From Polyangiaceae bacterium (GTDB lineage: Bacteria; Myxococcota_A; Polyangia; Polyangiales; Polyangiaceae), in contig DAONZA010000008.1 in assembly GCA_035414525.1 (NCBI GenBank), positions 1 through 51,891 of the forward strand: a stretch of DNA of 51,891 nucleotides, in the 5' to 3' direction. The notes under the pieces are model-generated. The model was not told where the DNA came from and did not search any database. It saw only the letters and a list, made by a program, of their open reading frames with translations. The translations under genes and the position numbers were made by a program. Positions 3,001 through 42,964 of the stretch are shown in pieces; the stretch's first letter is position 1; each line of letters opens with the position of its first letter.

Positions 3001-4216
3001 TGCGGCGGGAACGCAGGGCGTTGGGATCTGTCGCGCGGGCTCCGAAGCTTGTATCGCGGTGCAAGGCAGTGGTGTCGAAGCCTGGGGAGCATGCATCGGA
3101 CAGATCACACCGGCTTCGGAGATCTGTGATGGGCTCGACAACGATTGCAACGGTTTGGTTGACGACCGCGTGCCCGATGGTTTGGGTCACTTCACTGGAG
3201 ACCCCTGCTGTGCTCATGGTTCCAAATGTGGCACGGGTGAATGCACCGAAGGGGTCTACGTCTGCGCGGGTTCGCAGGTGGTTTGCGATGGTGGAAAGGG
3301 ACCATCGATGGAACTGTGCGACCATCTCGACAACGATTGCAATGGGGCGATCGATGACGTGCCTGGCATCGGAACCGCGTGTATTTTGCCCAGTGGATGT
3401 GCGGGAGAGCTTGCGTGTGATTACGCAACGGGTGGGCTTGCTTGCGTGTCGCCTACCATTCCGGTGTTGGAGATATGCAACGGAATCGACGACGATTGTG
3501 ATGGGCAAGTGGATGAAGAGCCCGAGGTAGCGCAAAACGATTCTCGCGTGGGGGTAGCGTGCAAGGTACCGGAGCCTCCTCATGACAAGCCGCCGTGCAA
3601 AGCAGGTATCACGGTATGCCGCAACGGCGTCATTGTGTGCGAGGGAGCTATCGAACCAGAGCCGGAAATCTGTGATGGGATAGATAACGATTGCGATGGA
3701 ATTCCTGATCAACCCGATCCTTGTCCAGGGGATACGGTATGCGATCAAGGAATATGCGTGGCTCCTTGTGGTTCCGGGGAGTTCCCCTGTCCAGGCGGGT
3801 TTTCTTGTGTCGATGGCTATTGTGTTCCCAATTCATCGTTGGACGCGGGAACGGGGGGCTCTGGAGGGACCGCGGGAGCGGGAGGTTCTGGGGGAAGTTC
3901 GGTGGATGCAGGAGATGATGGCGCCTTGGCCGATGGCGCCATCCATGATTCGAGTATGGGAGGCAGCGGTGGAACCACGGGTATGGGTGGTATGGCAGGA
4001 AACAATCCGGATGCTTCTGCCGCGGGTACGGGAGGGAAGGGGTCTGGGCCCCCACCCGAAAACTACGGACTTACCACCGGCGGCGGAGGAATTGCCTGCG
4101 GAATTGCTGTTCCGAAGACGAATCGTCGATGGCTTATGCTCGGTGCCTTGGGCTTGGTTGCCCTGGCCGTGCGCCGTTCACGACGAGAGGCTTTCGGTCA
4201 AGGAGGGTGGCGATGA
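38..4216 (+). CDS. Very large secreted Cys-rich repeat protein. Regions: an N-terminal Gly-rich beta-helix-like region, a vWA domain, 9 MopE/TIGR02232-type repeats (CDGxDNDCDGxxDE), a Gly/Ser-rich linker and a MYXO-CTERM-like sorting tail
   Basis: 1392-aa ORF. Its only in-frame start in the window is GTG at 38, which follows an in-frame stop at 17-19. The N-terminus is a short hydrophobic stretch. A MIDAS-like motif FVVVLDTSGSM ... VILLTDGAE marks the vWA domain. Nine copies of C(N/D)GxD(D/N)DC(D/N)GxxD(E/D) are present. The C-terminus reads GGGGIACGIAVPKTNRRWLMLGALGLVALAVRRSRRE: Gly/Cys, then a hydrophobic span, then Arg-rich, which is the MYXO-CTERM pattern. A TGA/ATG overlap (ATGA at 4213-4216) couples it to the next gene. 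Confidence 0.8.
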   Translation: MAVVLGWTTSVWAQSLTINGAVTTNTCPGGTVRDGGRACQYGGTHTFDAITLINGAVVYVAPFNGSDKNATGNLVFKSKSTIRIDATSRITAKGAGYQKKLCDNGSGPTATAGGRGGCAVKDSGGGGAHRGRGGQGTKDCFVYGNSQTCQFPQEWEENCGYLAPSGTSCVYADGLNGAHNCSNPNYTCANCDGDPSVAGEPYYHHILQPEFGASGGDKGCADGWDGSVRSGSGGGRIVLFAANDNQSGELILEGRVVAHGERGCASGNDSAGGGAGGTILLVGDHVDIRATARILAHGGRGGDSQPKCLPCTTNANCESGQTCVQGRCSPCNCTPCQPPSNTCPAGYPCKNLGGALGNVCVNAAGTCDPYDPGENEAECAGTQNSGTCDDCAGGGGGGIINVQSRVASIDPKAFFDVRGGQGGICPICAGEAGAGSGELQLDGAYLGEVCDGFDNDFNGLIDDGLGELKCAGGKTIPACINGIPQQCPADHPACVLPVTDTRPRFVVVLDTSGSMLTDIRGVPTFGDGSPNHSGVDTASDPDLIDGNNSRLFTAKRALTQVLSAFPHADYALARYHQDVGLNRSCQTASWFECQNNCCSYDDPRNNVPPAFEWIPACVLPTIYPGAGYPSALSSNINIGWTSQNDCINYAGSCGIPRRGADILVGFDAPLEQHLMWLDGRETAFNPSTVPADHCAFGAGGDCEIRATGPTPLAGSLHAVHDYLTPIVACDGAIPCRKYSVILLTDGAESCQGNPVAAAQNLRTLDPRTSVDTFVVGFSVLPEEESQLNAIAHAGGTNKAFLVGSESALANALASIIAASSVYELCNDLDDDCDGLIDEDFPEKGMACHDSGLGVCQGTGIRVCNATTDGTVCMITNPGASPTPEICNGLDDDCDGLIDEDGVCDTCIPMSEVCNGKDDNCNSIVDDDPIDVGVACGYSLGECVPGKTKCVNGVLICDGEVGPHPEVCDGLDNDCDGVVDGMTRLCYTGAAGTQGVGICRAGSEACIAVQGSGVEAWGACIGQITPASEICDGLDNDCNGLVDDRVPDGLGHFTGDPCCAHGSKCGTGECTEGVYVCAGSQVVCDGGKGPSMELCDHLDNDCNGAIDDVPGIGTACILPSGCAGELACDYATGGLACVSPTIPVLEICNGIDDDCDGQVDEEPEVAQNDSRVGVACKVPEPPHDKPPCKAGITVCRNGVIVCEGAIEPEPEICDGIDNDCDGIPDQPDPCPGDTVCDQGICVAPCGSGEFPCPGGFSCVDGYCVPNSSLDAGTGGSGGTAGAGGSGGSSVDAGDDGALADGAIHDSSMGGSGGTTGMGGMAGNNPDASAAGTGGKGSGPPPENYGLTTGGGGIACGIAVPKTNRRWLMLGALGLVALAVRRSRREAFGQGGWR

Positions 4217-6372
4217 GCCTTGATTTGCGCATGGGTGAGGCCGCCTTACTCGCCGTCTTGGTTGGTTTGAATACTGGTTGTTCCAACGAAGCGTATTGCT
4301 ACACCTGCGGTGATCACGATTCATCGGCGGAATCTGGGGTGGCTGGCTCTTCGGGAACCGGCGGATCTGGTGGTTCCGATGGCGGTGTGTTCTACCCGGA
4401 AACAGGACAGCCGGAGTCGTCGCTCGAAGGGGGCGATGAGCTTTCGGATGGCGCTCCGTGCCAAGCGGACACGCAAAATGACCCGCTCAATTGTGGAGCT
4501 TGCGGCTTCGTATGCGACCTTTTCGGAGCCTTTCCAAAATGCGAGCAAGGGATTTGCAAAATCGATTCGTGCGCCCCGAACTTCTACGATATCAACGGTA
4601 TCGACTCGGACGGATGCGAGTATCCGTGTACGATGACCAACGGCGGCGTTGAGATTTGCGATACCAAGGACAACGATTGCAACGGACTCATCGATGAGGG
4701 CTTCGATCTATCGAAAGACCCGAAAAACTGCGGCGGATGCGGTATTGTTTGCGACCTTCCGAACGCTACGGCGCGCTGTGATGACTCGGGCGCGTTTCCC
4801 ACATGTGCCATTGACCAATGCGATCCGGGGTATGCGGACATCGATGGGCTAGCAAGCTCAGGCTGTGAATACGCCTGCCCCGTGTTTCCGATTCAGCCCG
4901 AGCAATGCAATGCGGTTGACGATAATTGCGATGGCAGGATCAACGAAGGCAATCCAGGGGGAGGGGAGCCTTGCGAAGAGACCTGTCCGAATGGCGAATG
5001 CAAAGGGCAATGTACGCCGGGAACGACCACGTGTGTGGGAACGAAATTGGTTTGTGTGCCCGGTGTCGGACCAAGCCTCGAAGTATGCGACGGAATCGAC
5101 AACGACTGTGATGGCGAGGTTGATGAAGGGTTCGACTTGATGAACGACCCCGCGCATTGTGGCCAATGCAATCATGCCTGTGTGATGGACAATGCCATCG
5201 GCGGCTGCGTACAAGGAAAATGTGTGATTAGCGCGTGCTTGCCGGGCTTCGCATCCATCAATGGCAATGACTCGGATGGCTGTGAGTACAAGTGCCCCGT
5301 GTATCCCACCGCCCCTGAGGTCTGCAATGGGATGGATGATGATTGCAATGGCGTTGTGGATGATCCCATCGTAGTGGCAGCGCAGAAGCCAGATGGCAAG
5401 TTCTGCAATCCACAGCCCTTATTGCCCAATCCCTGTAAGGGAACGGACTTCGTTTGCACGGGAAAAACGGGATGGCGCTGCAATTACGGACCCGAGGTCG
5501 AGGTCGATGGCCAGGGCAAAGTCGTGTTGGTGGAGACGCGTTGTGACGGTAAGGATGGCAATTGCAATGGTCAGGTAGATGAATCTTGGCCGGACCTGGG
5601 TTCGGAATGTGACAACGGCGAGCATGGTGCCTGTCGAGATGTGGGGATTCGCATCTGCGATCCAAACGACAACACAAAAACGACCTGCGATCTGAGTCCG
5701 TTGCCTGATCCGGACCCATCGGCGCCGCGGGCGGAAACCTGTAATGGGGTGGATGACGACTGCAACGGGCAGGTCGATGATGGGATCGTCGATGACATGG
5801 TGGAGGTGAAGGTAGGGGCGCTTCACTTTTTCATCGACCGTTTCGAGGCGTCGCGTCCAGACGCTACGGCCACCGACCCCGGCTGGATGGAAACCCGTAG
5901 ATGTGTAAATAGTGGTGTATATCCATGGACTTACGCCAATTATGCCGAGGCCGAAGCCGCTTGCGCAAAGACGGGACACCGATTGTGTACCGCGCAGGAA
6001 TATCGAGTGGCGTGTGAGAGTGCGGCGGGGCATCTATACCCTTACGGCAACGTTTACGAGCCGATGACGTGCAATGGGCTTGATTATGATGGGGTGCCTG
6101 GAGGGGCGAATGACAACGTTTTGATTCCGACAGGGAATCTCCTTCAATGTGTGGCGCCAGGTTCGATTTTCGATCTTTCTGGGAATGCGGCGGAATGGAC
6201 AAGCTCGGTGACGTCGAACACCGGACCGCCCACGAACCTGGACATTCATGTGGTCATGGGTGGGTCTTATCAGACGCCAGCTCTTGGTTTGTCCTGCGGT
6301 TTCGATCTCAGCCGGTTTGCGGAAAACGCAATCTTGCCCGAGCTCGGCTTTCGATGCTGCAAAGACCCGTGA
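4213..6372 (+). CDS. Lipoprotein with tandem Cys-rich modules fused to a C-terminal FGE-sulfatase (SUMF1-like, DUF323) domain
   Basis: I place the start at the ATG at 4213, which overlaps the upstream stop. This is preferred over the ORF-track start at 4129 because of the signal and lipobox LLAVLVGLNTGCSNE. Three repeats of about 50 aa (NCGxCGxxC...GxDSDGCEYxC) each alternate with MopE-type repeats (CDTKDNDCNGLIDEG and similar). The C-terminal domain has FGE hallmarks: HFFIDRFEASRPDA ... GNAAEWTSS ... MGGSY ... LGFRCC at the extreme C-terminus. Confidence 0.8.
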   Translation: MSLDLRMGEAALLAVLVGLNTGCSNEAYCYTCGDHDSSAESGVAGSSGTGGSGGSDGGVFYPETGQPESSLEGGDELSDGAPCQADTQNDPLNCGACGFVCDLFGAFPKCEQGICKIDSCAPNFYDINGIDSDGCEYPCTMTNGGVEICDTKDNDCNGLIDEGFDLSKDPKNCGGCGIVCDLPNATARCDDSGAFPTCAIDQCDPGYADIDGLASSGCEYACPVFPIQPEQCNAVDDNCDGRINEGNPGGGEPCEETCPNGECKGQCTPGTTTCVGTKLVCVPGVGPSLEVCDGIDNDCDGEVDEGFDLMNDPAHCGQCNHACVMDNAIGGCVQGKCVISACLPGFASINGNDSDGCEYKCPVYPTAPEVCNGMDDDCNGVVDDPIVVAAQKPDGKFCNPQPLLPNPCKGTDFVCTGKTGWRCNYGPEVEVDGQGKVVLVETRCDGKDGNCNGQVDESWPDLGSECDNGEHGACRDVGIRICDPNDNTKTTCDLSPLPDPDPSAPRAETCNGVDDDCNGQVDDGIVDDMVEVKVGALHFFIDRFEASRPDATATDPGWMETRRCVNSGVYPWTYANYAEAEAACAKTGHRLCTAQEYRVACESAAGHLYPYGNVYEPMTCNGLDYDGVPGGANDNVLIPTGNLLQCVAPGSIFDLSGNAAEWTSSVTSNTGPPTNLDIHVVMGGSYQTPALGLSCGFDLSRFAENAILPELGFRCCKDP

Positions 6373-9005: not shown

Positions 9006-10559
9006 ATGCAGGTGACTCGATGTCCTTCGGTGGTTTGCATCGCTGCTGCGTTATCTCTCGCGCTTGTTTCGAGTCGTACGGATGCTTCGACGGGCTACGA
9101 ATTCCCCGAAAACGGAACCGAACAGCTTGGCCGTGCCGGCGCGTGGACCGCGCGCGCTTCCAACTCTCTCGCCACGTTTTTCAATCCCGCCGGCCTCGCC
9201 GGCCAGCCTTCCAGCCTGCTGCTCAATTCTTCCTTGATCTGGCAAAAAAATTGTCTGAAACGCACCTACCCCGACGGCAACCCCGTTCGTCTGGGAAATG
9301 GTGGCGCCTATCAATACCCCAGCGAAGTCTGCAACGACGATAGCGGTACCCCTTTCCCTAACCCGCAACTCGCGGGAGTCCTACGATTGTCCGACCGTCT
9401 TGGCTTGGGCCTCGCCGTCCTCGGCCCCTCGACCCGCGGCCAATTCACGTTCCCATCCCATGTCACGGGCTCTCGAGTCGGTGGAGTCGAACGAGAAGTC
9501 CCGAGCCCCCAACGCTATCTGCTGCAAAGCGACGAACTATTGTTCATATGGCCCCAAATCGGTATCGGTTGGGAACCCATCGATGATTTGCGCTTCGGTG
9601 CTTCGTTGATCTGGGGCATCGCTCGGCTGAAGTTCTCCATCCTCGCTGCCGGACGATCCGCCGGCGAAACCATTCAAAACTACCCATACCTCGCGGAACA
9701 ATACCTCGATTTCCAAGCCGATATCGATGTCAAAGACCTGTTCGTTCCGGGATTCACCGTCGGCACGTTATGGTCGCCCTCGCCAAACATTGACGTGGCT
9801 GCTTGGTACCACTGGATGGACGATATCCGCGCCAAAGGAGATATGGCTGTCGAAGGAAGTGTCTACGGAGACCCGCCCCATCAACGCCCAAGCTCACGAA
9901 ACTCCGTGCGTGCTCCCAAAGACAGCGTGCAGGTCGTTGCGCCATGGCCGATGCAGGCCCGAGTTGGTTTTCGATGGCACCAACCTAGAGACGGAATCCA
10001 TTCGAAAATGCGGGATCCCATCGCCAACGACGTTTGGGATATCGAACTCGATATGACGTGGGCCAACAACTCGCACTTCAAATATCTCGACGCCACCATG
10101 CCCGACGGCGTCTTTCTCGAAGTGCATAACCCCGCGGATCCCAATCCGAATTCCAGTGTCGCCTTCGCCATGCCGACCGATGCGCGCGTCCCACACCATT
10201 GGAAAGACTCCTTCGGTTTTCGTCTCGGCGGCGACTACGTCATGTTGCCCAATAGACTGGCCGCACGTGCCGGCGCCTTCTTCGATTCCGAAGCGCAAGA
10301 CCCCAAATACCTGAACGTCGATTACGTCCCCTCTCGCAAGTTCGGTCTGCATGTGGGGGGAACCGTCCGGTTTGGAGCCCTCGACCTGATGGTGGCTTAT
10401 GCGCACGTCTTTTATCAAGGCCTCGACAACCAAGGGGACGGCAAAACCCAAGGCCTGGCTGGCGCTGCCCCCACGTATCGCACAGACTATCCAGTCAATG
10501 GCGGTTCCAATCGTTCCGTCATCAATGCGCTATCGTTTGGAGCTTCTCACTCGTTCTGA
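9006..10559 (+). CDS. FadL/TodX/OmpP1-family outer-membrane channel for hydrophobic compounds
   Basis: Signal peptide MQVTRCPSVVCIAAALSLALVSSRTDAS. The family N-terminal signature reads GYEFPENGTEQLGRAGAWTARASNSLATFFNPAGLA. The protein ends with a C-terminal Phe (SFGASHSF), typical of beta-barrel OMPs. Confidence 0.8.
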   Translation: MQVTRCPSVVCIAAALSLALVSSRTDASTGYEFPENGTEQLGRAGAWTARASNSLATFFNPAGLAGQPSSLLLNSSLIWQKNCLKRTYPDGNPVRLGNGGAYQYPSEVCNDDSGTPFPNPQLAGVLRLSDRLGLGLAVLGPSTRGQFTFPSHVTGSRVGGVEREVPSPQRYLLQSDELLFIWPQIGIGWEPIDDLRFGASLIWGIARLKFSILAAGRSAGETIQNYPYLAEQYLDFQADIDVKDLFVPGFTVGTLWSPSPNIDVAAWYHWMDDIRAKGDMAVEGSVYGDPPHQRPSSRNSVRAPKDSVQVVAPWPMQARVGFRWHQPRDGIHSKMRDPIANDVWDIELDMTWANNSHFKYLDATMPDGVFLEVHNPADPNPNSSVAFAMPTDARVPHHWKDSFGFRLGGDYVMLPNRLAARAGAFFDSEAQDPKYLNVDYVPSRKFGLHVGGTVRFGALDLMVAYAHVFYQGLDNQGDGKTQGLAGAAPTYRTDYPVNGGSNRSVINALSFGASHSF

Positions 10560-23358: not shown

Positions 23359-24294
23359 TTGCCTCTGGGGCAACCTGCACTATCGTCGGCGCCCATGGCG
23401 TGGCGTTTCGCGGTTGGTTTCTTGCTAGGTTGGGCATTCCTTCCTTCGATGGGGTGCTCCCATCGTGAACCATCCGACCAAGGGGTAGCCTCGGCGTCGT
23501 CGACGGTGTCGGCGCCTGCTCCGGTGCAACAACCTTCGAGACCGTCAATGGGCGAGAATGTGTTGGTGGAAAAAGAAGATGGGCAGTTTGTGCAAGGCCG
23601 TGTGGTCAAGGACGGCGACCCGATCACGGTGGAATATGGCGGCCGAAAAACGAAGATCAGGGTTTCCGACGACCGGGTGTATGGGCTGGGTTCTCGTGCG
23701 GCCGCGGTAACCATCAACGATTTTGCGGCGTGCAAAACTGCCCCGGATACCTGGGTGGGCTGTCTCATCAAGCAGGTCGCTTCGGGACGGGTAGAGGTGG
23801 AAGATGCGCAGGGCAAGACGTATGACCTAGCGGAGGGCGATGTGGTGGGGCTACGGGAGGAGACGCGGCGGCGGATCGGTCAAAAACACAAGGAATTGTC
23901 CGAACATAGAGATTTTTTCGCGGCCATGAACCAGCAAACACGACCGTATCAACCGCCGGGATGGGAGCCAAAACCAGGCGATGAAGTGGTGGCAAGACAC
24001 GAAGACGGCTCCTGGCGTGGAGGAAGGATTCGCCGCATCACGCCCACGAACGTGCATGTTTCGTGGGACGATAAGTCACCGCTTTCGATCCGGGAAGCGC
24101 GTGAGGTCACGCCGAAACCGAAAAAGCCGCAGGATGTGCAACCGGGGCAAATGGTTCTGGCTCGTCCGAGAAAAGGGTCGGTGTGGGAGTTGTACCGGGT
24201 GCAGAGTATCGATGCCAAAGGAGTGCTCATCGTGGACCAGGACGGACGTTCCCGCAAAGCTCGTAAAAGCGAACTCATTGCGTTCGGAAGTTGA
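23359..24294 (+). CDS. Lipoprotein built from four Tudor/SH3-like small beta modules, 7 nt downstream of polA
   Basis: Signal and lipobox FLLGWAFLPSMGCSH; an alternative start is M at 23395. Four repeats of about 45 aa of the type G(D/E)xV(V/L)AR...G.W..G....I......V.... (for example GDEVVARHEDGSWRGGRIRRIT and GQMVLARPRKGSVWELYRVQSI). Confidence 0.55.
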   Translation: MPLGQPALSSAPMAWRFAVGFLLGWAFLPSMGCSHREPSDQGVASASSTVSAPAPVQQPSRPSMGENVLVEKEDGQFVQGRVVKDGDPITVEYGGRKTKIRVSDDRVYGLGSRAAAVTINDFAACKTAPDTWVGCLIKQVASGRVEVEDAQGKTYDLAEGDVVGLREETRRRIGQKHKELSEHRDFFAAMNQQTRPYQPPGWEPKPGDEVVARHEDGSWRGGRIRRITPTNVHVSWDDKSPLSIREAREVTPKPKKPQDVQPGQMVLARPRKGSVWELYRVQSIDAKGVLIVDQDGRSRKARKSELIAFGS

Positions 24295-24808: not shown

Positions 24809-25489
24809 ATGCCAAGACGCCGTCGTTCGGAAAACGAGGTCGAAGCCGTGCGAAACCAGATCTTGGACGAGGCATTGAACTTGTTCGTGGAGGCAGGTTG
24901 GCAAGGTTTTTCCATGCGCAAACTCGGCGCTCGCCTGGGCATCGCCGCGAAAACGGTCTACAACTACTTCGCCTCCCAAGACGAATTGTACCTCGGTCTG
25001 CTCACCCGCGGCTTTCATAGCCTCGGTCAGGCTCTTGCCAAAGCGGCCGAACCCCATACCAACCCATTCGAACGGCTCGACGCGCTGATCGATGCCTACG
25101 TGACGTTTGCCTTCGACAATACACACCTATACGGGTTGATGTTCACCTGGCATGTGCCCAAGTATGACGACTACGTGGGCACGGCGATGGAGAACACGGC
25201 TCGGGTCGAACTCGAGACGGCGCTCGACAGTCTCCGCCTGACTGCCACTACCATCGCTGCCTGCACCGGCACGCCGCCAGCAAGGGATGACCTGTACTTC
25301 ATCACGGTTCGCCTGTGGACGCAGTTACATGGTTATATCGCAGGCATCCACAACCACCTCATCGACTACATGCATCCTGACCCGGCTTCTCTGAAAGAGC
25401 GCATGATCACACGGATCAAAAATAGCGTTGTCCATGAGATTCTCGCTCTGAACCCCACCGCTGCGCGTGAGCAGCCAACCCTGCAGTGA
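24809..25489 (+). CDS. TetR/AcrR-family transcriptional regulator
   Basis: The N-terminal HTH is RNQILDEALNLFVEAGWQGFSMRKLGARLGIAAKTVYNYFASQDELYLGL. It sits immediately upstream of the glycyl-radical operon, with a 15-nt gap. Confidence 0.85.
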   Translation: MPRRRRSENEVEAVRNQILDEALNLFVEAGWQGFSMRKLGARLGIAAKTVYNYFASQDELYLGLLTRGFHSLGQALAKAAEPHTNPFERLDALIDAYVTFAFDNTHLYGLMFTWHVPKYDDYVGTAMENTARVELETALDSLRLTATTIAACTGTPPARDDLYFITVRLWTQLHGYIAGIHNHLIDYMHPDPASLKERMITRIKNSVVHEILALNPTAAREQPTLQ

Positions 25490-25504: not shown

Positions 25505-26437
25505 ATGACGGCCATTCTGACGAAGCACGAACCGTTGCTGCTCGAGGTGAAAGGCAACGCGCTTGACGACGGTCCGGGCATTCGCTCGGTGGTTTTTTTC
25601 AAGGGCTGTAAGCTGTCGTGCCGATGGTGTCATAACCCGGAAAGTTTGAGTCAAAACGCTGAGTTGTCATTTAATGTTGCGGATTGTATTTCCGGCTGTA
25701 CCCGATGTCGTGGCCACTGCCCCGAGGACGCCATCATGCCTGGTGTCGGCATCAATCGTTGGGCCTGCACCAGATGCTTCGACTGCGTACCGGTCTGTCC
25801 ATCGGGGGCTTTGCGCCAGGTGGGTAAGCCAGCCAACGTCGCCGAGTTGATGGCCAAGCTTCGCGCGGATAAGCCCTTTTATGAAGCCTCCGGAGGCGGC
25901 GTCACCTTTTCCGGGGGAGAGCCGACTCTAGCGATGGAGCTGCTTGGGGAACTTGCCGCGGCCTGTCGTGCCGAAGGTATACACACCCTTTTAGAGACTG
26001 CCGGATACTTTCGGTGGGAGCCGTTCGAACGAGGGGTGCTGCCGCATCTGAACGCCATCTATTATGACCTGAAACTCATGGATTCCGAGGACCACCGTGC
26101 GTATTGCGGGGTGCCGAACGAGCGGATCCTGGCCAATTTCAAGCGGTTGGTGGAGCTATCCCGTGCCGGGACGTTCGATCTGCAGCCGCGCATTCCGCTG
26201 GTCCCGGATATCACCGCGACGGAAGAAAACCTGACGGCGATCGGCCGATTTCTGCTCGATGTGGGGGTTCGTCAAGTCCGGTTGCTGGATTACAATCCAA
26301 CCTGGGTAGACAAGGGTCCTCAATTGGGAATTGCTAACAAATTCACTGAGTTAGATATTATGCGGACATGGCTGCCCCGCGGCCTGGCAGCCCGACTGCG
26401 CCAACATCTCGTTGATCTCGGCCTGGAGGCGATATGA
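25505..26437 (+). CDS. Glycyl-radical enzyme activating enzyme. It is a radical SAM enzyme with two auxiliary ferredoxin-like clusters, the TIGR02494-type seen with GRE eliminases
   Basis: The radical-SAM motif is CKLSCRWCHNPE (CxxxCxxC). There are two ferredoxin-like Cys clusters, CTRCRGHCPEDAI and CTRCFDCVPVCPSGAL, and a GGE motif (FSGGEPTL). The stop overlaps the GRE start (ATGA). Confidence 0.9.
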   Translation: MTAILTKHEPLLLEVKGNALDDGPGIRSVVFFKGCKLSCRWCHNPESLSQNAELSFNVADCISGCTRCRGHCPEDAIMPGVGINRWACTRCFDCVPVCPSGALRQVGKPANVAELMAKLRADKPFYEASGGGVTFSGGEPTLAMELLGELAAACRAEGIHTLLETAGYFRWEPFERGVLPHLNAIYYDLKLMDSEDHRAYCGVPNERILANFKRLVELSRAGTFDLQPRIPLVPDITATEENLTAIGRFLLDVGVRQVRLLDYNPTWVDKGPQLGIANKFTELDIMRTWLPRGLAARLRQHLVDLGLEAI

Positions 26438-29400
26438 CGTTCCCCAACACCTCTTCGTCCACTTCTTCCGGAACCGAGCATGCCATGACCATGGCCGAAC
26501 CGACCGCTGTGAAGCTGCCCCCGGTGGACCCGCTGGACATGCGCCCATTTCATCCGGACCCGGCGGTGAGCGATGCGGCGCGCCACAGTCCGCAACAATT
26601 GATCGTGCGTGGGCTGCTCGGTCTCATGGCCAAGCTCTACACCTGGCACCCCAGGTTGCGTGACGAATTGCGTATCAAGGACGGTTGGATCGATCTTGTG
26701 GTCGGCATTCGCACCCGCTCTGGCTCCGTGCGCACCGGAATCCGGTTTCGAGATGGCAAAGCAAAGGCGATGGGCCGCATTCCCGAGGCCGTCGATGTCG
26801 TGCTGGTATTCAAATCCGACGCTGAAGTTACGAAATTCCTCACGGCCACGCCAACCGAGCAGGTCCTCATGACGTTGCGCAACGACTTTTACGTCGATGG
26901 CAATACATCATCGCTAAACCTGTTCGTATATCTGATTTCCCGACTCCTTTTCCGCCAGCAAATCAAGAATCTGGCGAAAGATCTTCGTAACGATAACGCT
27001 GATCGTCGCACACAAGCCGGTGCCACGAATCCTGATCTGGCCCGGCAGATGCGCGAGCGTGCGGACTACCGCATTGCGACTTCGCAAGTCGATCCGGGTG
27101 TGAAATATCTCGAGGACCCCTACTTGCGTGATTTCAGTTTGAAGGATTTCCCGCGGCTAGCTAAGTTTTTGAACCGGCACCTCGACCATGACGCCGAGGT
27201 ATGCCCAGAATTGCCGAAACTATTGACCGAATGGCATCGAAAACACGGTTTCGAGCGAGATTCGAAGGGCAAGCCCTGGCACCCGGTGCTGCGCAAAGCC
27301 CTGGCCTATCAATATGTGATGGAGAATCGTCGGCCGATCATCCATGCCAACGACCTCATTGCCGGCACGACAACTACCAAGGAAACCGGTGTGGTTGTCT
27401 ATCCGGAGGGGCATGGGACGATGATCTGGGGCGAGCTGCTGACGGTGCCGCATCGACCTCTGAATCCTTACGGTGTCTCGGAGGAGACCCGAGAATTGCT
27501 GCATAAGGATGTATTCCCCTATTGGAGCCGTCGCAACTTCAAGGAATGGGTGCGAGACCACTACCGTTCGCCTTTGGGCCAGCGTATCGACGACCGATTT
27601 GCGGTCTATTTCGACTGGAAAACCGCAACCATCTCACACACGATCCCGGATTTCCCCAAGATGTTGCGGCTGGGAACGTCCGGCATCATCGCCGAGATCG
27701 AGGAAGCGATGGCTGCCGACTCGGATGAGGAGCGTAATACCACCCGGCGGGCATTCATTCTCGCGCTGGAGGGGTTGGGCACCTATTCTCGGCATTTGGC
27801 GGCGCAAGCGGCGTATGAGGCGGAGCGGGAAAGCGACCCCAGTCGGGCGGCTGAGTTGCGCCGACTGGCCGAGATCTGTAGCCAGGTGGTCGTGGGGCCA
27901 GCCCGCACGCTCGATGAGGCGGTGAATTCGGTGTGGATCACGTGGGTGGGGCTGCATATGGAAAGCACCAATGCCGGGCTGTCGATGGGCCGGTTGGACC
28001 AGTGGCTGCAGCCATATTTCGAGGCCGATATGGGCAAGTTGGAGACTTTGGAGCAGCGGCGGGCCTACACCAAACGTGCGATTGAACTGGTGGGTGACTT
28101 GATGCTGCGCTGCACGGACCACTTGCCGCTGACTCCCGACGTGGCCAACTACTACTTTGGTGGCAGTTCCTCGGATCAAGCGATCACGCTGGGCGGGGTG
28201 ACCCCCGAAGGCGAAGACGCGGTCTGCGATATGACGTATATATTCTTGAAAGTCACTGAAATCCTTAGTCTTCGCGACCCAAATGTGAACGCTAGATTCC
28301 ATCTGGGCAAAAACAGCCAAGCGTACCTGAAGCGTCTTTGCGAGGTCAATCTGATCACGGCGGCGACTCCGTCGTTGCATAACGACGAGGTCGTGGGGAA
28401 GGCCTTGAGCCGCTATGGCTATGAGGTACGTGACGTGCGTGATTGGGCGGCGACCGGGTGTGTGGAGCCGACGCTGTCGGGAAAGCATATCGGCCATACC
28501 AATTTCCAGATGCTCAGTCTGGTGGCGGCGCTGGAGATGGCGTTGAACGACGGCTGGCATCCGCTGATGGATTGGAAGGTGGGACCATCTACCGGTTCGA
28601 TCGAGGCTGGCGATTTTGCGAATTTCGACCAGTTTTTCGAGGCTTACCGGCAGCAGGTGGCTTTTCTGGTCGACCGATCGATCGAGTACAACGAGATGTT
28701 GGGTAAGGCGCATCAGCAGCTTCGTCCGACGCCACTGCTGTCCAGCCTGATCGAGGGCACCATTGCATCGGGAAAGGATGTTACGTATGGGGGAGCCAGG
28801 TACAACAGTTCTGGGGCTGCGTGCATCGGGCTGGTTGACGTCATCGATTCGATGTTGGTGATCCAGAAGCTCGTATTCGAGCAACGAGTTGTGTCATTCG
28901 CTGACCTCAAGCGGGCAGTGGACACGAATTTCGCCAACGATCCGCTGTTATTGGCGCAGGTATCCCACAAAGTAGCGCTTTTTGGCTCGGGCAACGAAGA
29001 CGCCGTGGCGATGGGCAACCGCATTACCAAGATGGTGCAGTCGCTGTATGATCGGTATACCAACTACCGGGGAGGCCGTTATGCGGCTGGGTTCTGGTCG
29101 ATGTCTACGCATGTATCTTACGGCACGCTGGCTGGAGCTTTGCCGTCGGGGCGGTTGGCGGGCAAGCCATTTACGCCAGGTCTGACTCCCACACCGGGGG
29201 CATCGCCGAACCTATTGGACAATATCCGTGATGTGGCCAGGTTGGATCCGGCCAATATGCCGAACAATATTGCCTTCAATGTGAAGGTGGTGCCATCGGC
29301 CCATGAGTCGCGGGAGCGGACGGTCGACACGATGGCCGCGTACGTGAAGTCCTATTTTTCGCTGGGGGGCATGCAAATGCAGCTCAACGCAGTCACGTCC

Positions 29401-29541
29401 GATACCCTTCGCGACGCGATGGTTCATCCGGAGAACTATCGCAATTTGCTCGTGTGGATTTCCGGGTATAATGCCTATTTCGTCACGCTGAACAAGCAGA
29501 TGCAGCTCGAGCTGATCGAGCGCGCTGAGTACGGTATCTAG
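26434..29541 (+). CDS. Glycyl radical enzyme, eliminase-like (Cys-x-Glu active-site loop). It is unusually long (1035 aa), with an N-terminal extension of about 240 aa that contains an SCP2-like domain
   Basis: The catalytic thiyl loop is WAATGCVEPTLSG, with the Cys codon at 28459-61. The C-terminal glycyl-radical motif reads LLVWISGYNAYFVTLNKQMQLELIERAEY, with the Gly codon at 29464-66. This aligns with the canonical RVxGYSAxFxxL motif but has W in place of R. The N-terminal residues of about 50-170 (WIDLVVGIRTRSGSVRTGIRF...AVDVVLVFKSDAEVTKFLTATPTEQVLMTLRNDFYVDGNTSSLNLFVYLISRL) resemble an SCP2 sterol-carrier fold. Confidence 0.9.
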   Translation: MTFPNTSSSTSSGTEHAMTMAEPTAVKLPPVDPLDMRPFHPDPAVSDAARHSPQQLIVRGLLGLMAKLYTWHPRLRDELRIKDGWIDLVVGIRTRSGSVRTGIRFRDGKAKAMGRIPEAVDVVLVFKSDAEVTKFLTATPTEQVLMTLRNDFYVDGNTSSLNLFVYLISRLLFRQQIKNLAKDLRNDNADRRTQAGATNPDLARQMRERADYRIATSQVDPGVKYLEDPYLRDFSLKDFPRLAKFLNRHLDHDAEVCPELPKLLTEWHRKHGFERDSKGKPWHPVLRKALAYQYVMENRRPIIHANDLIAGTTTTKETGVVVYPEGHGTMIWGELLTVPHRPLNPYGVSEETRELLHKDVFPYWSRRNFKEWVRDHYRSPLGQRIDDRFAVYFDWKTATISHTIPDFPKMLRLGTSGIIAEIEEAMAADSDEERNTTRRAFILALEGLGTYSRHLAAQAAYEAERESDPSRAAELRRLAEICSQVVVGPARTLDEAVNSVWITWVGLHMESTNAGLSMGRLDQWLQPYFEADMGKLETLEQRRAYTKRAIELVGDLMLRCTDHLPLTPDVANYYFGGSSSDQAITLGGVTPEGEDAVCDMTYIFLKVTEILSLRDPNVNARFHLGKNSQAYLKRLCEVNLITAATPSLHNDEVVGKALSRYGYEVRDVRDWAATGCVEPTLSGKHIGHTNFQMLSLVAALEMALNDGWHPLMDWKVGPSTGSIEAGDFANFDQFFEAYRQQVAFLVDRSIEYNEMLGKAHQQLRPTPLLSSLIEGTIASGKDVTYGGARYNSSGAACIGLVDVIDSMLVIQKLVFEQRVVSFADLKRAVDTNFANDPLLLAQVSHKVALFGSGNEDAVAMGNRITKMVQSLYDRYTNYRGGRYAAGFWSMSTHVSYGTLAGALPSGRLAGKPFTPGLTPTPGASPNLLDNIRDVARLDPANMPNNIAFNVKVVPSAHESRERTVDTMAAYVKSYFSLGGMQMQLNAVTSDTLRDAMVHPENYRNLLVWISGYNAYFVTLNKQMQLELIERAEYGI

Positions 29542-29898: not shown

Positions 29899-31392
29899 TT
29901 ACGGCGCCAGATCCATCTCGCCGACGTAGCTATGCACCGATCCGTTCGACTCATCGAGTCCGGAGAAAAACACCACCCATCGATTTGGTTCGTACGTAAG
30001 TGGCGAGGTGTAGGGCTTAACCGGCGTATATCCCACGTAGCGAATATCACCGTTGGATGGCAATCCCGTGATGGGAACCGAATGCCATGTCCAGCTATCG
30101 CCCCGGTCCATGCTCACGCCAAGGGATATAGTCGCGCCGGGGCCGGCGTCGAGCAGGTATAGCGCTCCATGGCTAGCGAATTTGAGCTTGGCGTAGTTGC
30201 TTACGCATCCCACTGGCACGATCGTGGGCGGCTGCGCGAGCTCGCTGTCGAAGCGAAGGAGTTCCGTGCATTGTTTTTCACTTTTCGGTAAATAGGAGAG
30301 CGCGTACAACGTGCCCTGCGCGTCGTGTTCGAGGTCCGAGGGATAGGCGCTGACTATGCCTGGAACGGGTTGCGCTGGCGCACGACGGAATAATTGGCTC
30401 AGCGACGACGTATTTCCAACGTAGGCGGTGGAAGCGAGGTAGCTTGCGTTATTGCCCCCCGCGGGGTCGAACTCCCCGGCGTAAAGGATGAGTTGTGAAG
30501 AACCGAGGGACGGGTGTCCGGTCAAGATTGGATAAAGCAGGTATGCGGGGGCGGCTGTCAACGTGCCGATGGTGCCGTATTGCGCACCGCTGTACCACCA
30601 CTGTACCACACGTCCCCAGGCAGAGTCGGCCAGTGCCCATACTGTCACCCCGTCGGTGGTGGTTGCGATTCCCTGGTAGCCGTTGGACTCCGCGGTCCAT
30701 TCGTCATGGTTGCTGTAGGTATCGAAACGGAGCGCGCCGCTGCCATCCCGCGTGGAGAAGATCAGGTGGTAGAATCGCGAGTTTCTTCCCGTCGTCCCCG
30801 CTCCTCCTGGAAAACAGAGCACATCTTGCGTGGCGGGGCGCATACAATCGAAGATGAGGTGCAGCCGCTGCGATATGTCCATCACGATCCCAGGGGACTG
30901 ATGCGGATAAGCGATACGCGCAACTTCCACCCAAGCATGGAGGGCGCTTCCGGCCTCGCGTCTCATGATTGCCGCATAACGATCCGCTACGGAGGGGGGA
31001 TAATGGGTATGGACCGCATACCAGAATGCGCCGTCGCCCACGATTTTCGGCAGGTGGGCATTCCATGTGGCAGGTGTCGTCTGGGGGGAAGGTCCGGTGT
31101 GGATCAGCCCCACCCGCAATTCGGCCGGGATGAACGGCTCGATGGCGCTTTCCTCCCCGGCATCCTTAGACGAGTCGATCGATGAATCCCCGCCGATTTC
31201 ATCGGAAGCATCGACTGGGGTGGGCTCTTCGGGCGAACCATCCCATGGAATATAGGAATCAGAAACATCATCCGGGTCGATGCTGGCGTCGAGCACAGGA
31301 TTGGTCGCTCCGGCGGAAACGTGGCTCTCGCGGTCCGCGGCGCAAGCGGGTGGGACAATGACGAGCGCCGCGAGGCAAAGCGCGCGTTTCAT
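29899..31392 (-). CDS. Secreted protein with a BNR/Asp-box, probably a beta-propeller (sialidase/glycosidase-like fold); function unknown
   Basis: Signal peptide MKRALCLAALVIVPPACAA. The Asp-box is SMDRGDSWTWH (S-x-D-x-G-x-[ST]-W). An acidic low-complexity N-terminal region follows the signal. Confidence 0.55.
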   Translation of the reverse strand: MKRALCLAALVIVPPACAADRESHVSAGATNPVLDASIDPDDVSDSYIPWDGSPEEPTPVDASDEIGGDSSIDSSKDAGEESAIEPFIPAELRVGLIHTGPSPQTTPATWNAHLPKIVGDGAFWYAVHTHYPPSVADRYAAIMRREAGSALHAWVEVARIAYPHQSPGIVMDISQRLHLIFDCMRPATQDVLCFPGGAGTTGRNSRFYHLIFSTRDGSGALRFDTYSNHDEWTAESNGYQGIATTTDGVTVWALADSAWGRVVQWWYSGAQYGTIGTLTAAPAYLLYPILTGHPSLGSSQLILYAGEFDPAGGNNASYLASTAYVGNTSSLSQLFRRAPAQPVPGIVSAYPSDLEHDAQGTLYALSYLPKSEKQCTELLRFDSELAQPPTIVPVGCVSNYAKLKFASHGALYLLDAGPGATISLGVSMDRGDSWTWHSVPITGLPSNGDIRYVGYTPVKPYTSPLTYEPNRWVVFFSGLDESNGSVHSYVGEMDLAP

Positions 31393-32008: not shown

Positions 32009-33583
32009 ATGTCCACTTCTCTGGATCGCAGGGACTTATTGCAAGTCATGGGCTACGGTGCGGCTACCGTATCGCTGCCTTTCGTGGCGGGTTGTGGTCG
32101 CACGGAAATCCAGCGTTTGACTTCCAAGTCACCGAGTTTGCAGGAACCGGGCAAGGATTCGGGAGCGGTGAGCGTGAGTCATTTTGATGCTTTCGGTGTC
32201 GATGAGGGATTGATACGCAAGGTATTATCCCGGGCGTTGTCGCGGGGGGCTTCTTTTTCGGAAATATTTTTGCAGCACAGGGTATCGCATTGGGTGGGTA
32301 TGGAAGATGGCGAGGTCAATAGGGCCTATTCCGAGGTGGGTCTTGGCGCGGGCATTCGCGTGATTCAAGGGGATACGACCGGATTTTCATTTACGGAGGA
32401 CCTGACGCCCGGGGCCTTGCTCGAAGCCGCGGACATGGCTTCCGCGGTGGCCGATGGCCCTTCCAGCCCGCGTTCGATAACCCTCACGCCTCGTATCGTC
32501 GTGTCTCGCTACACCGTGGAAACGCCGTGGACCGAAGTCGGCATCGACCGCAAGCTTCCGATCGTTCAGCGGGCGGAAAAAGCGGCGCGAAATCATGATA
32601 CGCGAATCATCAAGGTGACGGTGGCTCTTCAAGATGAGACCTCCCACATCCTGATCGCCAATTCCGAGGGGCTGCTGGTCGCCGACGAGCGGCCCATGGG
32701 CGTCCTTTCCGTGTCCTGTGTAGGAGAAAACAAGGGAAAAACTGAGACGGGGTACTGGACCTTCGCCCAGCGCGATGGGATTCGTTTTCTCACGCCAGCT
32801 CATATCGACGACACGGGAACCACGGCAGCGCGCAATACGGTGTTGCTTTTTGAAGCCGTGTCTCCGCCGGTGGGAGACATGCCGGTCGTCCTTGGGCCAG
32901 GAAATCCAGGACTGCTCTTGCACGAGGCCATTGGGCACGGGATGGAAGCGGATTTCAATCGCAAGGGGATTTCGATTTATGCGAACCGGATTGGAAAAAG
33001 AATCGCTCCGGAGGGTGTGACCATCGTGGATGGGGGCACTGGACGACAGCGTGGTTCGCTCAACATCGACGATGAAGGGCATCCCACCGAGGAGACGGTA
33101 TTGGTGGAAAACGGCGTATTACGCACCTATTTGCACGACCGTATTTCAGCGCAGCACTTCAAGGCGCCCCGTACAGGCTCGGGACGTCGTGAATCCTATT
33201 GTTATCCACCGGTGCCGCGAATGCGCAACACTTATATGCTTGCGGGGAAAGAAAGCCCGGAGGAGATCATCGCTTCCGTCAAAAAGGGGATTTACGCCGA
33301 GATCTTCACCAACGGACAGGTGATGATTGGTGCCGGGGATTTTACCTTCTATTTGAAACACGGAAGGCTCATCGAAGATGGGAAACTGACCCATGTGATC
33401 AAGGATGCGAACCTCATCGGCAATGGCCCAAACGTTCTCGAGAAGGTGGCGATGATCGGCAACGATTTGAAGCATATCACCGGGGCTGGCTATTGTGGCA
33501 AGGATGGGCAGGGCGTTCCGGTGGGTTTTGGATTACCGACCTTAAAAGTGAGTGGTATTTCCGTGGGTGGGAGGGGAGCATGA
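32009..33583 (+). CDS. tldD: TldD-family metallopeptidase carrying a twin-arginine (Tat) signal peptide with a lipobox
   Basis: The N-terminus is MSTSLDRRDLLQVMGYGAATVSLPFVAGCG. It contains the Tat motif S-L-D-R-R-D-L-L-Q and then the lipobox VAGC. The metal-binding HExxxH motif is HEAIGHGMEADF. An AAATGAGG RBS lies upstream. Confidence 0.9.
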   Translation: MSTSLDRRDLLQVMGYGAATVSLPFVAGCGRTEIQRLTSKSPSLQEPGKDSGAVSVSHFDAFGVDEGLIRKVLSRALSRGASFSEIFLQHRVSHWVGMEDGEVNRAYSEVGLGAGIRVIQGDTTGFSFTEDLTPGALLEAADMASAVADGPSSPRSITLTPRIVVSRYTVETPWTEVGIDRKLPIVQRAEKAARNHDTRIIKVTVALQDETSHILIANSEGLLVADERPMGVLSVSCVGENKGKTETGYWTFAQRDGIRFLTPAHIDDTGTTAARNTVLLFEAVSPPVGDMPVVLGPGNPGLLLHEAIGHGMEADFNRKGISIYANRIGKRIAPEGVTIVDGGTGRQRGSLNIDDEGHPTEETVLVENGVLRTYLHDRISAQHFKAPRTGSGRRESYCYPPVPRMRNTYMLAGKESPEEIIASVKKGIYAEIFTNGQVMIGAGDFTFYLKHGRLIEDGKLTHVIKDANLIGNGPNVLEKVAMIGNDLKHITGAGYCGKDGQGVPVGFGLPTLKVSGISVGGRGA

Positions 33584-34908
33584 ACGCGACGCTTATGCAA
33601 CTTGTTGAAAATGCGCTTATTTTGGCGAAACGGCAGGGCGCAGCGGCGGCGCGGGCAAGCGTATGGCGCATGCGGGAAAGTGGTGTGGAGTGGCGCGATG
33701 GGAAGCTCGACCGCTTGCGTGAGTCTGTCCACAAGGGCCTTTCCATCTCCTTATTTGTCGATGGGCGTTATTCTTCCCACACGACAAGCGATTTGCGTCC
33801 GGAAGCCATGGAGCTTTTCGTGGCCGAGTCGGTGGCGATGACCAAGGTGCTTCAGCCGGATCCCCATCGCAAGCTTCCCCCTTTGGAGCGCTGCCAAGAG
33901 AGGTTTGAGGGCGATCTTCTGCTGTTGGACAGGGACAATCTTGGTGTCATCGACGGTGCGGCGCAAAAAAAGCAGGCGATGGAGCTGGAACGAGCGATGC
34001 GGCAGGCCGAGGGCGCGGATCTCATCCTTTCGGCTACGGGAGCGATGCGTGTCTACCACACGATGAGCGCGATGAGGGATAGTCAGGGCACGAAAGGCGA
34101 GCGGGAATCTTCGGTTTTCGCTCGCTCGGCTTCCGCTACGGTTCGAGGCGAAGGGGATCGAAAACCTTCCGGGGGAGACTACGCTGCTACTCATCATTAT
34201 GCCGAACTTCCTTCGATGGACCTCATGGGCAAAGAAGCGGTGCGAAGGGCGTTGGCGGGGATTGGAGAAACCCCTTGGAAGAGTGGTAAGTATCCTTGTA
34301 TCATTGAGAACCGGGTGGCGGATCGTTTGCTCGGGGGGCTATTGGGGCCGTTGGGGGGCAACTCCTTGCAGCAAAAACGCTCGTATATGTCGGGTAAACT
34401 CGGAGAAAAGGTGGGGTCGATCCTCCTTCACATCGACGATGACCCTCTGCTGCCAAAGGGGGCGGCTTCTCGAACGTATGATTACGAAGGGATGAGCACC
34501 CGACGTCGTCCGATTTTCGAAAAAGGAGTTTTGCGAACGTATTTGTTGGATACCTATTACGCTTCCAAATTGGGGTGGGAGCCGACGGTCGGGGAGACGA
34601 GCAATCTAGTATTTCCCAAAGGAAAACAAGATCTTGCGGGATTGTTGCGCACGATGGGAAGAGGAATCCTCGTCACGGGGTTTTCCGGGGGCAATTCCAA
34701 TGCAGCGACGGGTGATTTTTCGATTGGCATCCGGGGGCATTGGGTGGAGTCCGGGCGTATCGTCAAACCCGTGGCCGAAATGAATCTTGCGGGCAACCAC
34801 CTCACGTTCTGGCAAGCCTTGGCGGAGCTTGGTTCGGATCCATACCCGTATCGTGGGGCACGGACCCCTTCGATGCGGTTCCATGAAGTGCAGTTTTCCG
34901 GGGTGTGA
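33580..34908 (+). CDS. pmbA: PmbA/TldE-family protein, the partner of TldD; it has no signal peptide
   Basis: The ATG at 33580 overlaps the tldD stop (ATGA). TldE-like sequence is seen throughout, for example GFSGGNSNAATGDFSIGIRGHWVESG. It lacks the HExxxH motif, as expected for TldE. Confidence 0.85.
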   Translation: MNATLMQLVENALILAKRQGAAAARASVWRMRESGVEWRDGKLDRLRESVHKGLSISLFVDGRYSSHTTSDLRPEAMELFVAESVAMTKVLQPDPHRKLPPLERCQERFEGDLLLLDRDNLGVIDGAAQKKQAMELERAMRQAEGADLILSATGAMRVYHTMSAMRDSQGTKGERESSVFARSASATVRGEGDRKPSGGDYAATHHYAELPSMDLMGKEAVRRALAGIGETPWKSGKYPCIIENRVADRLLGGLLGPLGGNSLQQKRSYMSGKLGEKVGSILLHIDDDPLLPKGAASRTYDYEGMSTRRRPIFEKGVLRTYLLDTYYASKLGWEPTVGETSNLVFPKGKQDLAGLLRTMGRGILVTGFSGGNSNAATGDFSIGIRGHWVESGRIVKPVAEMNLAGNHLTFWQALAELGSDPYPYRGARTPSMRFHEVQFSGV

Positions 34909-42893: not shown

Positions 42894-42964
42894 ATTCCAA
42901 GGATATTTTTACTGATTCGGTGATATAGACGCGACAGGTGGGTTCCTTTCGCAAGGAGATAGAT

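Follow-up and report, generated by a model that had tools for sequence, protein, structure and literature searches.

We describe a glycyl radical enzyme (GRE) of 1035 residues encoded on the forward strand at positions 26434-29541 of a contig from a Polyangiaceae bacterium (GenBank assembly GCA_035414525.1, contig DAONZA010000008.1), of which we analysed a stretch of 51,891 nucleotides that we call the window. Our reading, which we hold with fair but far from complete confidence, is that the gene sits in a module formed by a TetR-family regulator, a GRE activase and the GRE itself, that it represents an uncharacterised family in which the GRE is fused to a domain like sterol carrier protein 2 (SCP2), and that the tryptophan it carries at an invariant position of the Gly loop is a real, sample-specific and probably damaging missense allele. 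Trp1008 is a private allele of a single base, and it is neither a family nor a species trait.

The gene is identified by its open reading frame (ORF), its translation, and its matches in Pfam and in the Protein Data Bank (PDB). The exact protein is public as HPY16417.1, from a metagenome-assembled genome (MAG) of a Polyangiaceae bacterium, and we reject on that ground the idea that the Trp was artificially introduced into the window. Pfam finds a PFL-like barrel domain (PF02901, 4.9e-154) at residues 249-897 (27178-29124), where the match spans positions 12-647 of the 647 in the profile and the PFL-like ten-stranded barrel is present, followed by a glycyl radical domain (PF01228, 2.1e-20) at residues 913-1017 (29170-29484), which despite the Trp exceeds its cutoff of 22.2 bits with a score of 73.7. 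The GRE motif reads LLVWISGYNAYF, and the translation has the C-terminus ...NYRNLLVWISGYNAYFVTLNKQMQLELIERAEYGI. At the level of DNA, positions 29452-29469 read gtg TGG att tcc GGG tat. The TGG codon (29455-29457) encodes Trp1008, where every relative has an Arg, and its first base is T where other assemblies of this population have C. The GGG codon (29464-29466) encodes Gly1011, the predicted glycyl radical site, which aligns with the radical Gly of the structures 1r8w and 2f3o and is invariant in the family. The GRE superfamily has the C-terminal fingerprint RVxG[FWY]x6-8[FL]x4Qx2[IV]x2R, with the Arg in first place (PMC13450708). Set against it, this allele reads W-I-S-G-Y-NAYFVT-L-NKQM-Q-LE-L-IE-R. 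The Gly, the aromatic residue, the L, the Q and the final R are kept; the changes of V to I and of [IV] to L are family-wide, and that of the first R to W occurs in this allele only. A first-pass annotation, made from the DNA letters, had reported the ORF, the GRE fold, a VWISGYNAYF-type motif, the positions of the TGG and Gly codons, and the fact that TGG is one base away from the Arg codon CGG. All of these are present where it placed them, and the DNA does read TGG at 29455-29457.

That annotation had also proposed an atypical GRE in which Trp takes the place of Arg, and here the comparison with relatives gives a different answer. A homology search covering 5.8 billion proteins identifies a family of proteins of about 1000 residues, at 60-100% identity to the window protein. 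All of the 120 best matches listed carry R[IV]SGYNAYF, with the Arg kept. The block L-[LI]-V-R-I-S-G-Y-N-A-Y-F is fixed in the 117 full-length homologues that we aligned (117/117), and the Trp of the window is the sole deviation from it. A scan of GTDB species representatives contributes 50 further loci, and the Arg is there in every copy that has a complete C-terminus (46/46). The best match (P0001) overlaps the window protein over 1016 residues and differs from it at residue 1008 only, with R in place of W. The cluster at 90% identity that holds HPY16417.1 holds as well a 1035-residue Arg form (P0122) that is found on 33 contigs, and the other cluster members covering the site carry Arg in nine cases out of nine. 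The Trp is not a lineage trait. The first-pass annotation had itself named orthologues uniformly carrying Arg as the observation that would argue against a novel variant; this is what we find, and in its strongest form, since near-identical contigs from the same population carry CGG.

These contigs localise the difference to one base. The index of a public assembly collection lists the Arg protein in 105 blocks and the Trp protein in 2. We compared five contigs encoding the Arg protein (L001-L005) with positions 16434-39541 of the window. Three of them, L001 (ENA ERZ27257490), L003 (JGI 3300009681) and L004 (JGI 3300010346), come from three different samples and match the window at 23,107 of 23,108 bases. 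Their single difference is base 29455, which is C there and T in the window (CGG to TGG). L002 and L005 have a few further differences, and both have C at 29455. A pattern scan of metagenome contigs for either allele returns one contig, from ENA (L011), and it reads CGG. The T of the window recurs in only one other assembly, that of the JGI contig Ga0116183_1000500 (sample 3300009670; 45,762 bp), which is identical to the window over the 23,108 bases. This contig has other ends and differs from the window at positions 2637 and 2919, and was therefore assembled separately from the same population. Elsewhere in the window, the comparison with majority contigs (five other assemblies) yields only three differences, G-to-A changes at 49289, 49296 and 49360. 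All four window-private changes, these three and 29455, are C-to-T on the coding strand. They are compatible with ordinary transition mutation and with deamination damage, and their number is too small to decide between the two. The changes at 49289, 49296 and 49360 fall within a 72-bp stretch inside an ORF on the reverse strand (49191-50987) for a 598-residue protein without a Pfam domain, in which they result in R567C, a synonymous Ile codon, and A543V.

Trp1008 is most likely real as an allele because two separate assemblies called T. A call repeated in this way favours a real allele, in the majority in that sample, over a random error of the assembler. The alternative that survives best, although we think it unlikely, is that sequencing or assembly produced the T at 29455 by error, for example through a damaged base read as C-to-T or through a wrong consensus call in a single data set, and that the organism in that sample truly has CGG. 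Changes from C to T are the commonest type of artefact, and errors do occur in MAG consensus sequences. An artefact would agree with three other assemblies differing from the window over 23 kb at 29455 alone, with the change falling on an invariant residue, and with the other private differences at 49289, 49296 and 49360 being C-to-T on the coding strand as well; it agrees less well with a T that is called in two assemblies having different ends and differing from one another at 2637 and 2919. A random assembler error would not recur at one site, and a consensus base requires the support of the majority of reads.

If the allele is real, it probably impairs the enzyme, at the level of activase recognition or of Gly-loop packing, and it would then be a hypomorph or a null. 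We infer this because the Arg is invariant and because a bulky, uncharged Trp takes its place at the third residue ahead of the radical Gly. As a substrate, the activase needs no more than the seven-residue peptide RVSGYAV (PMC13450708). Neither the GRE nor the activase has a compensating change, and the surrounding 23 kb are identical.

The comparisons establish directly that the base is private and the Arg invariant, and which domains and neighbouring genes are present, whereas the reality of the allele, its effect on function, the eliminase chemistry and the lipid-like substrate are inferences. Several points weigh against our reading. We found no mutational data on the Gly-loop Arg in the searchable literature, and the claim of damage rests on conservation; the role of this Arg is not discussed in PMC10665898 or PMC9326890. 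The two assemblies with T may come from one read set, which leaves room for an artefact at the level of the reads. With regard to the family, the assignment of the SCP2-like domain rests on a predicted structure and is unsupported by any sequence profile, and the window has the TetR and activase genes without a neighbouring gene for a short-chain dehydrogenase/reductase (SDR), which adjoins the GRE gene in some related loci.

There is also the case to be considered of a Trp that does no harm. Trp1008 would then be a functional variant with which the glycyl radical is still formed, possibly with a change in how the activase recognises the loop or in how stable the radical is, and the window would present a natural Gly loop that is independent of Arg, with the "invariant" Arg being dispensable. 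Apart from this residue the ORF is intact and matches the wild type, with Gly1011, Cys676 and Glu678 in place, and the allele is abundant enough in one community to appear in two assemblies. The rules of Gly-loop recognition are also poorly mapped according to a review (PMC13450708). We nevertheless consider this reading very improbable: Trp occurs at this position in none of about 290 relatives examined, the same population keeps the Arg elsewhere, and a compensating change is absent from the GRE and the activase within 23 kb of identical sequence. More improbable still is a gene on its way to being lost, an incipient pseudogene of which the Trp would be the first lesion, in a lineage where selection has relaxed. 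In favour of it one can cite that the mutated residue is invariant elsewhere; against it stand an Arg allele that about a hundred assemblies of this population keep without change, an ORF free of frameshifts and stops, and the fact that one change cannot show relaxed selection. The first-pass annotation had left the choice between an unusual substitution, an error, and an inactivating mutation. The inactivating or strain-specific mutation fits best, a sequencing error is possible at the low probability given above, and the unusual GRE variant does not stand other than as a private allele.

The change from Arg to Trp amounts then, in our reading of a damaging missense allele, to one base in the assemblies of one sample. 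It creates no new glycyl-radical motif, and it should not be passed on as such. The allele is useful only in offering a natural mutant with which the role of the conserved Gly-loop Arg could be tested. The family carries more weight than the allele, as an uncharacterised GRE clade that is distributed over several anaerobic phyla and that combines an SCP2-like domain with a CXE/His site and with a TetR regulator and an activase.

As for the class of enzyme, the window GRE matches 37 GRE structures in the PDB, of which the nearest are A. fulgidus PFL2 (2f3o, 8.5e-110) and glycerol dehydratase (GD; 1r8w, 6e-104), and which also include propanediol dehydratase (PD) and CutC. All NCBIfam equivalog cutoffs are missed by far, as in the cases of CutC (363 vs 1050) and HypD (352 vs 1100), and the subfamily model TIGR01774 scores 495 vs 678. 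The Cys loop GCVEP at residues 675-679 (28456-28470), with Cys676 and Glu678, is family-invariant and aligns with G432-C433-V434-E435-P436 of GD. The CXE motif that it contains defines the GRE 1,2-eliminases (PMC13450708), and we therefore assign an eliminase-type chemistry; the first-pass annotation had likewise described the loop as of the Cys-x-Glu eliminase type. His402 (codon 27637-27639), invariant in all 117 homologues, aligns with His164 of GD, which is the proposed acid for the leaving hydroxyl (PMC13450708). In the alignment with 1r8w, Cys676 corresponds to Cys433, Glu678 to Glu435, His402 to His164, Gly515 to Ser282, and Asn690 to Asp447. All of these positions (Cys676, Glu678, His402, Gly515 and Asn690) are invariant among the 117 homologues. 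Judging by its motifs, the protein appears to be an eliminase with a pocket unlike that of any characterised member, and it lies outside the characterised equivalogs (GD, CutC, HypD, HpsG/HpfG and PflD/YbiW). An identity as glycerol dehydratase, CutC or HypD is rejected, as the equivalog cutoffs are missed and both Ser282 and Asp447 of GD are replaced.

Among known systems, PFL2 of A. fulgidus (2f3o) provides the best solved structure, aligning with residues 276-1031 of the window protein, with which it shares the GCVE Cys loop, a His-containing ISH motif, and a Gly loop of the form RV-x-G-aromatic-SAYF. PFL2 differs in being 776 residues long, in having no SCP2-like N-terminal domain, and in having Arg in its Gly loop. 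Its function is debated between that of a glycerol dehydratase and that of an alkylsuccinate synthase (PMC13450708). With glycerol dehydratase (1r8w) and the other GRE 1,2-eliminases (PD, CutC, HypD, IslA and HpsG), the window GRE has in common the PFL-like barrel, the CXE motif, the His, and a dedicated activase with auxiliary clusters, but it scores below their equivalog cutoffs, has Gly515 and Asn690 in the places of GD Ser282 and Asp447, and includes the extra SCP2-like domain.

The activase is a radical SAM GRE activating enzyme encoded just upstream (25505-26437, forward strand), and matches TIGR02494 with 247 bits against a cutoff of 174. It has a CX3CX2C motif and two ferredoxin-like Cys motifs, which read CKLSCRWC, CISGCTRCRGHC and CTRCFDCVPVC. 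In the DNA we read a GGAGG Shine-Dalgarno sequence at 26425-26429 and an ATGA stop/start overlap at 26434-26437, which couple the activase to the GRE (26425-26437, forward strand), and this context supports the long start of the GRE. An upstream activase with two ferredoxin clusters, translationally coupled to the GRE, had been part of the first-pass annotation, and the TIGR02494 match, the two extra Cys motifs and the ATGA overlap bear it out. The first gene of the conserved module (24809-25489, forward strand) encodes a TetR-family regulator with the Pfam domains TetR_N and TetR_C_33.

By homology, the radical SAM cluster and the two auxiliary clusters of the activase would abstract a hydrogen from Gly1011. 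The Gly1011 radical would generate a thiyl radical on Cys676, which in turn would abstract a hydrogen from the substrate. Glu678 of the CXE motif would deprotonate the substrate hydroxyl and His402 would help the vicinal leaving group to depart, for an overall 1,2-elimination. The SCP2-like domain may hold or deliver a hydrophobic part of the substrate.

This last domain is predicted at residues ~53-175 (26590-26958, forward strand) from an AlphaFold2 model searched with Foldseek, and makes up most of the extra length of the protein. The protein had been noted at first pass to be about 200 residues longer than typical GREs, and in agreement with that its best PDB matches align only from residue ~240-280 onward. 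Conservation in the family begins at residue ~51 and is gap-free from there on, and the extension is therefore a family trait and not an annotation artefact. The AlphaFold2 model, built for residues 45-265 with 33 homologues, has a pLDDT mostly above 90 over model residues 11-130, and consists of a five-strand sheet packed by helices. The top 41 PDB matches that Foldseek reports for it are all SCP2-fold proteins. The best of them is UbiJ-SCP2 (6h6p, E-value 3.6e-6, TM 0.69), and the others include AF1534, the insect, yeast and human SCP2 proteins, the SCP-2L domain of MFE-2, and the C-terminal domains of alkylsulfatases. At the level of sequence, the N-terminal 272 residues match no SCP2 family in Pfam at E-values up to 10, and obtain nothing meaningful in a phmmer search or in a profile search of the PDB. 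The likeness to the SCP2-fold domains (6h6p; AF1534, 3bn8; SCP2, 1c44; MFE-2 SCP-2L, 1ikt; alkylsulfatase, 2cfu and 2yhe) is one of predicted fold over residues ~55-175 (Foldseek probability 1.00, target-normalised TM of 0.62-0.72). The difference is that the sequence identity is only 9-18%, that there is no match to a Pfam SCP2 family, and that the domain is here fused to a GRE. A profile of the N-terminal domain, run over 1.84 billion proteins, matches 285 cluster representatives at 50% identity. The match is always N-terminal, and the full-length representatives have 984-1041 residues; the short ones look like fragments truncated by the ends of their contigs. We found no paper linking SCP2 to glycyl radical enzymes in the literature searched. 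SCP2 domains are fused to enzymes that act on hydrophobic substrates in alkylsulfatases and in MFE-2, the SCP2 domain of the latter being carried by the eukaryotic protein.

Gene neighbourhoods were counted in 55 related loci. An activase adjoins the GRE in 50/55, and a homologous TetR regulator (TetR_N/TetR_C_33) is located upstream on the same strand in 36/55, including L008-L010. In 16/55 (about 30%) an SDR gene on the same strand adjoins the SCP2-fused GRE, as in the examples of L027 (13299-14198) and L010 (7187-7963). The closest structure to this SDR is the (3R)-hydroxyacyl-CoA dehydrogenase of MFE-2 (PDB 2et6, 2e-129). The hosts, taken from GTDB species representatives, are mainly Desulfobacterales, with MAGs of Desulfatibacillum and Desulfosudis oleivorans among them, and include also Spirochaetota, Acidobacteriota and Syntrophales. 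Very close homologues, namely L020 (85% identical in the N-terminal domain), P0124 and L021, one of them within the same 90% cluster, are deposited as Actinomycetota, Vicinamibacteraceae and Polyangiaceae. Their different phyla suggest errors of MAG binning or taxonomy, or a recent transfer of the module.

As a hypothesis, the SCP2-like domain, the lipid-type SDR and the TetR regulator together point to a hydrophobic hydroxylated substrate. Our tentative proposal, held at less than even confidence, is that the SCP2-fused GREs of about 1000 residues form a new functional class among the glycyl radical 1,2-eliminases, whose hydroxylated substrate would be lipid-like or otherwise hydrophobic and would be carried by the built-in SCP2 domain. 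To our knowledge, the substrates of all GRE eliminases characterised at present are small polar molecules. If this proposal is true, an eliminase with its own lipid carrier would broaden GRE chemistry to include hydrophobic substrates, in anoxic sediments and in digesters.

The remaining genes that we looked at lie outside the module. The neighbours of the GRE operon are an ORF of 497 residues at 29899-31392 on the reverse strand, with no Pfam or NCBIfam match, and an ORF of 248-311 residues at 23359-24294 on the forward strand, with only a sub-threshold match to cupin. Neither of them recurs beside the GRE in other genomes. Downstream there is a pair of TldD/PmbA metallopeptidase genes on the forward strand (32009-33583 and 33199-34908), the second of which has 442 residues in the public annotation vs 569 in the longest ORF. 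At 42938-45427, also on the forward strand, a protein of ~820 residues resembles the major vault protein, with the Pfam domain MVP_shoulder and a faint Vault_3, according to the precomputed annotation of an identical gene in another contig (L014). The window starts with two very large proteins on the forward strand (38-4216 and 4129-6372) that have MopE-like Cu-binding matches, the second one having also an FGE-sulfatase domain. After these MopE-like genes comes, at 9006-10559 on the same strand, a gene for an outer-membrane transporter of the Toluene_X/FadL type, a type that carries hydrophobic compounds. Only 4 blocks of the assembly collection contain this FadL-like protein in its exact form, vs 105-148 blocks for genes lying downstream of it, a contrast that suggests that strains vary in this region.

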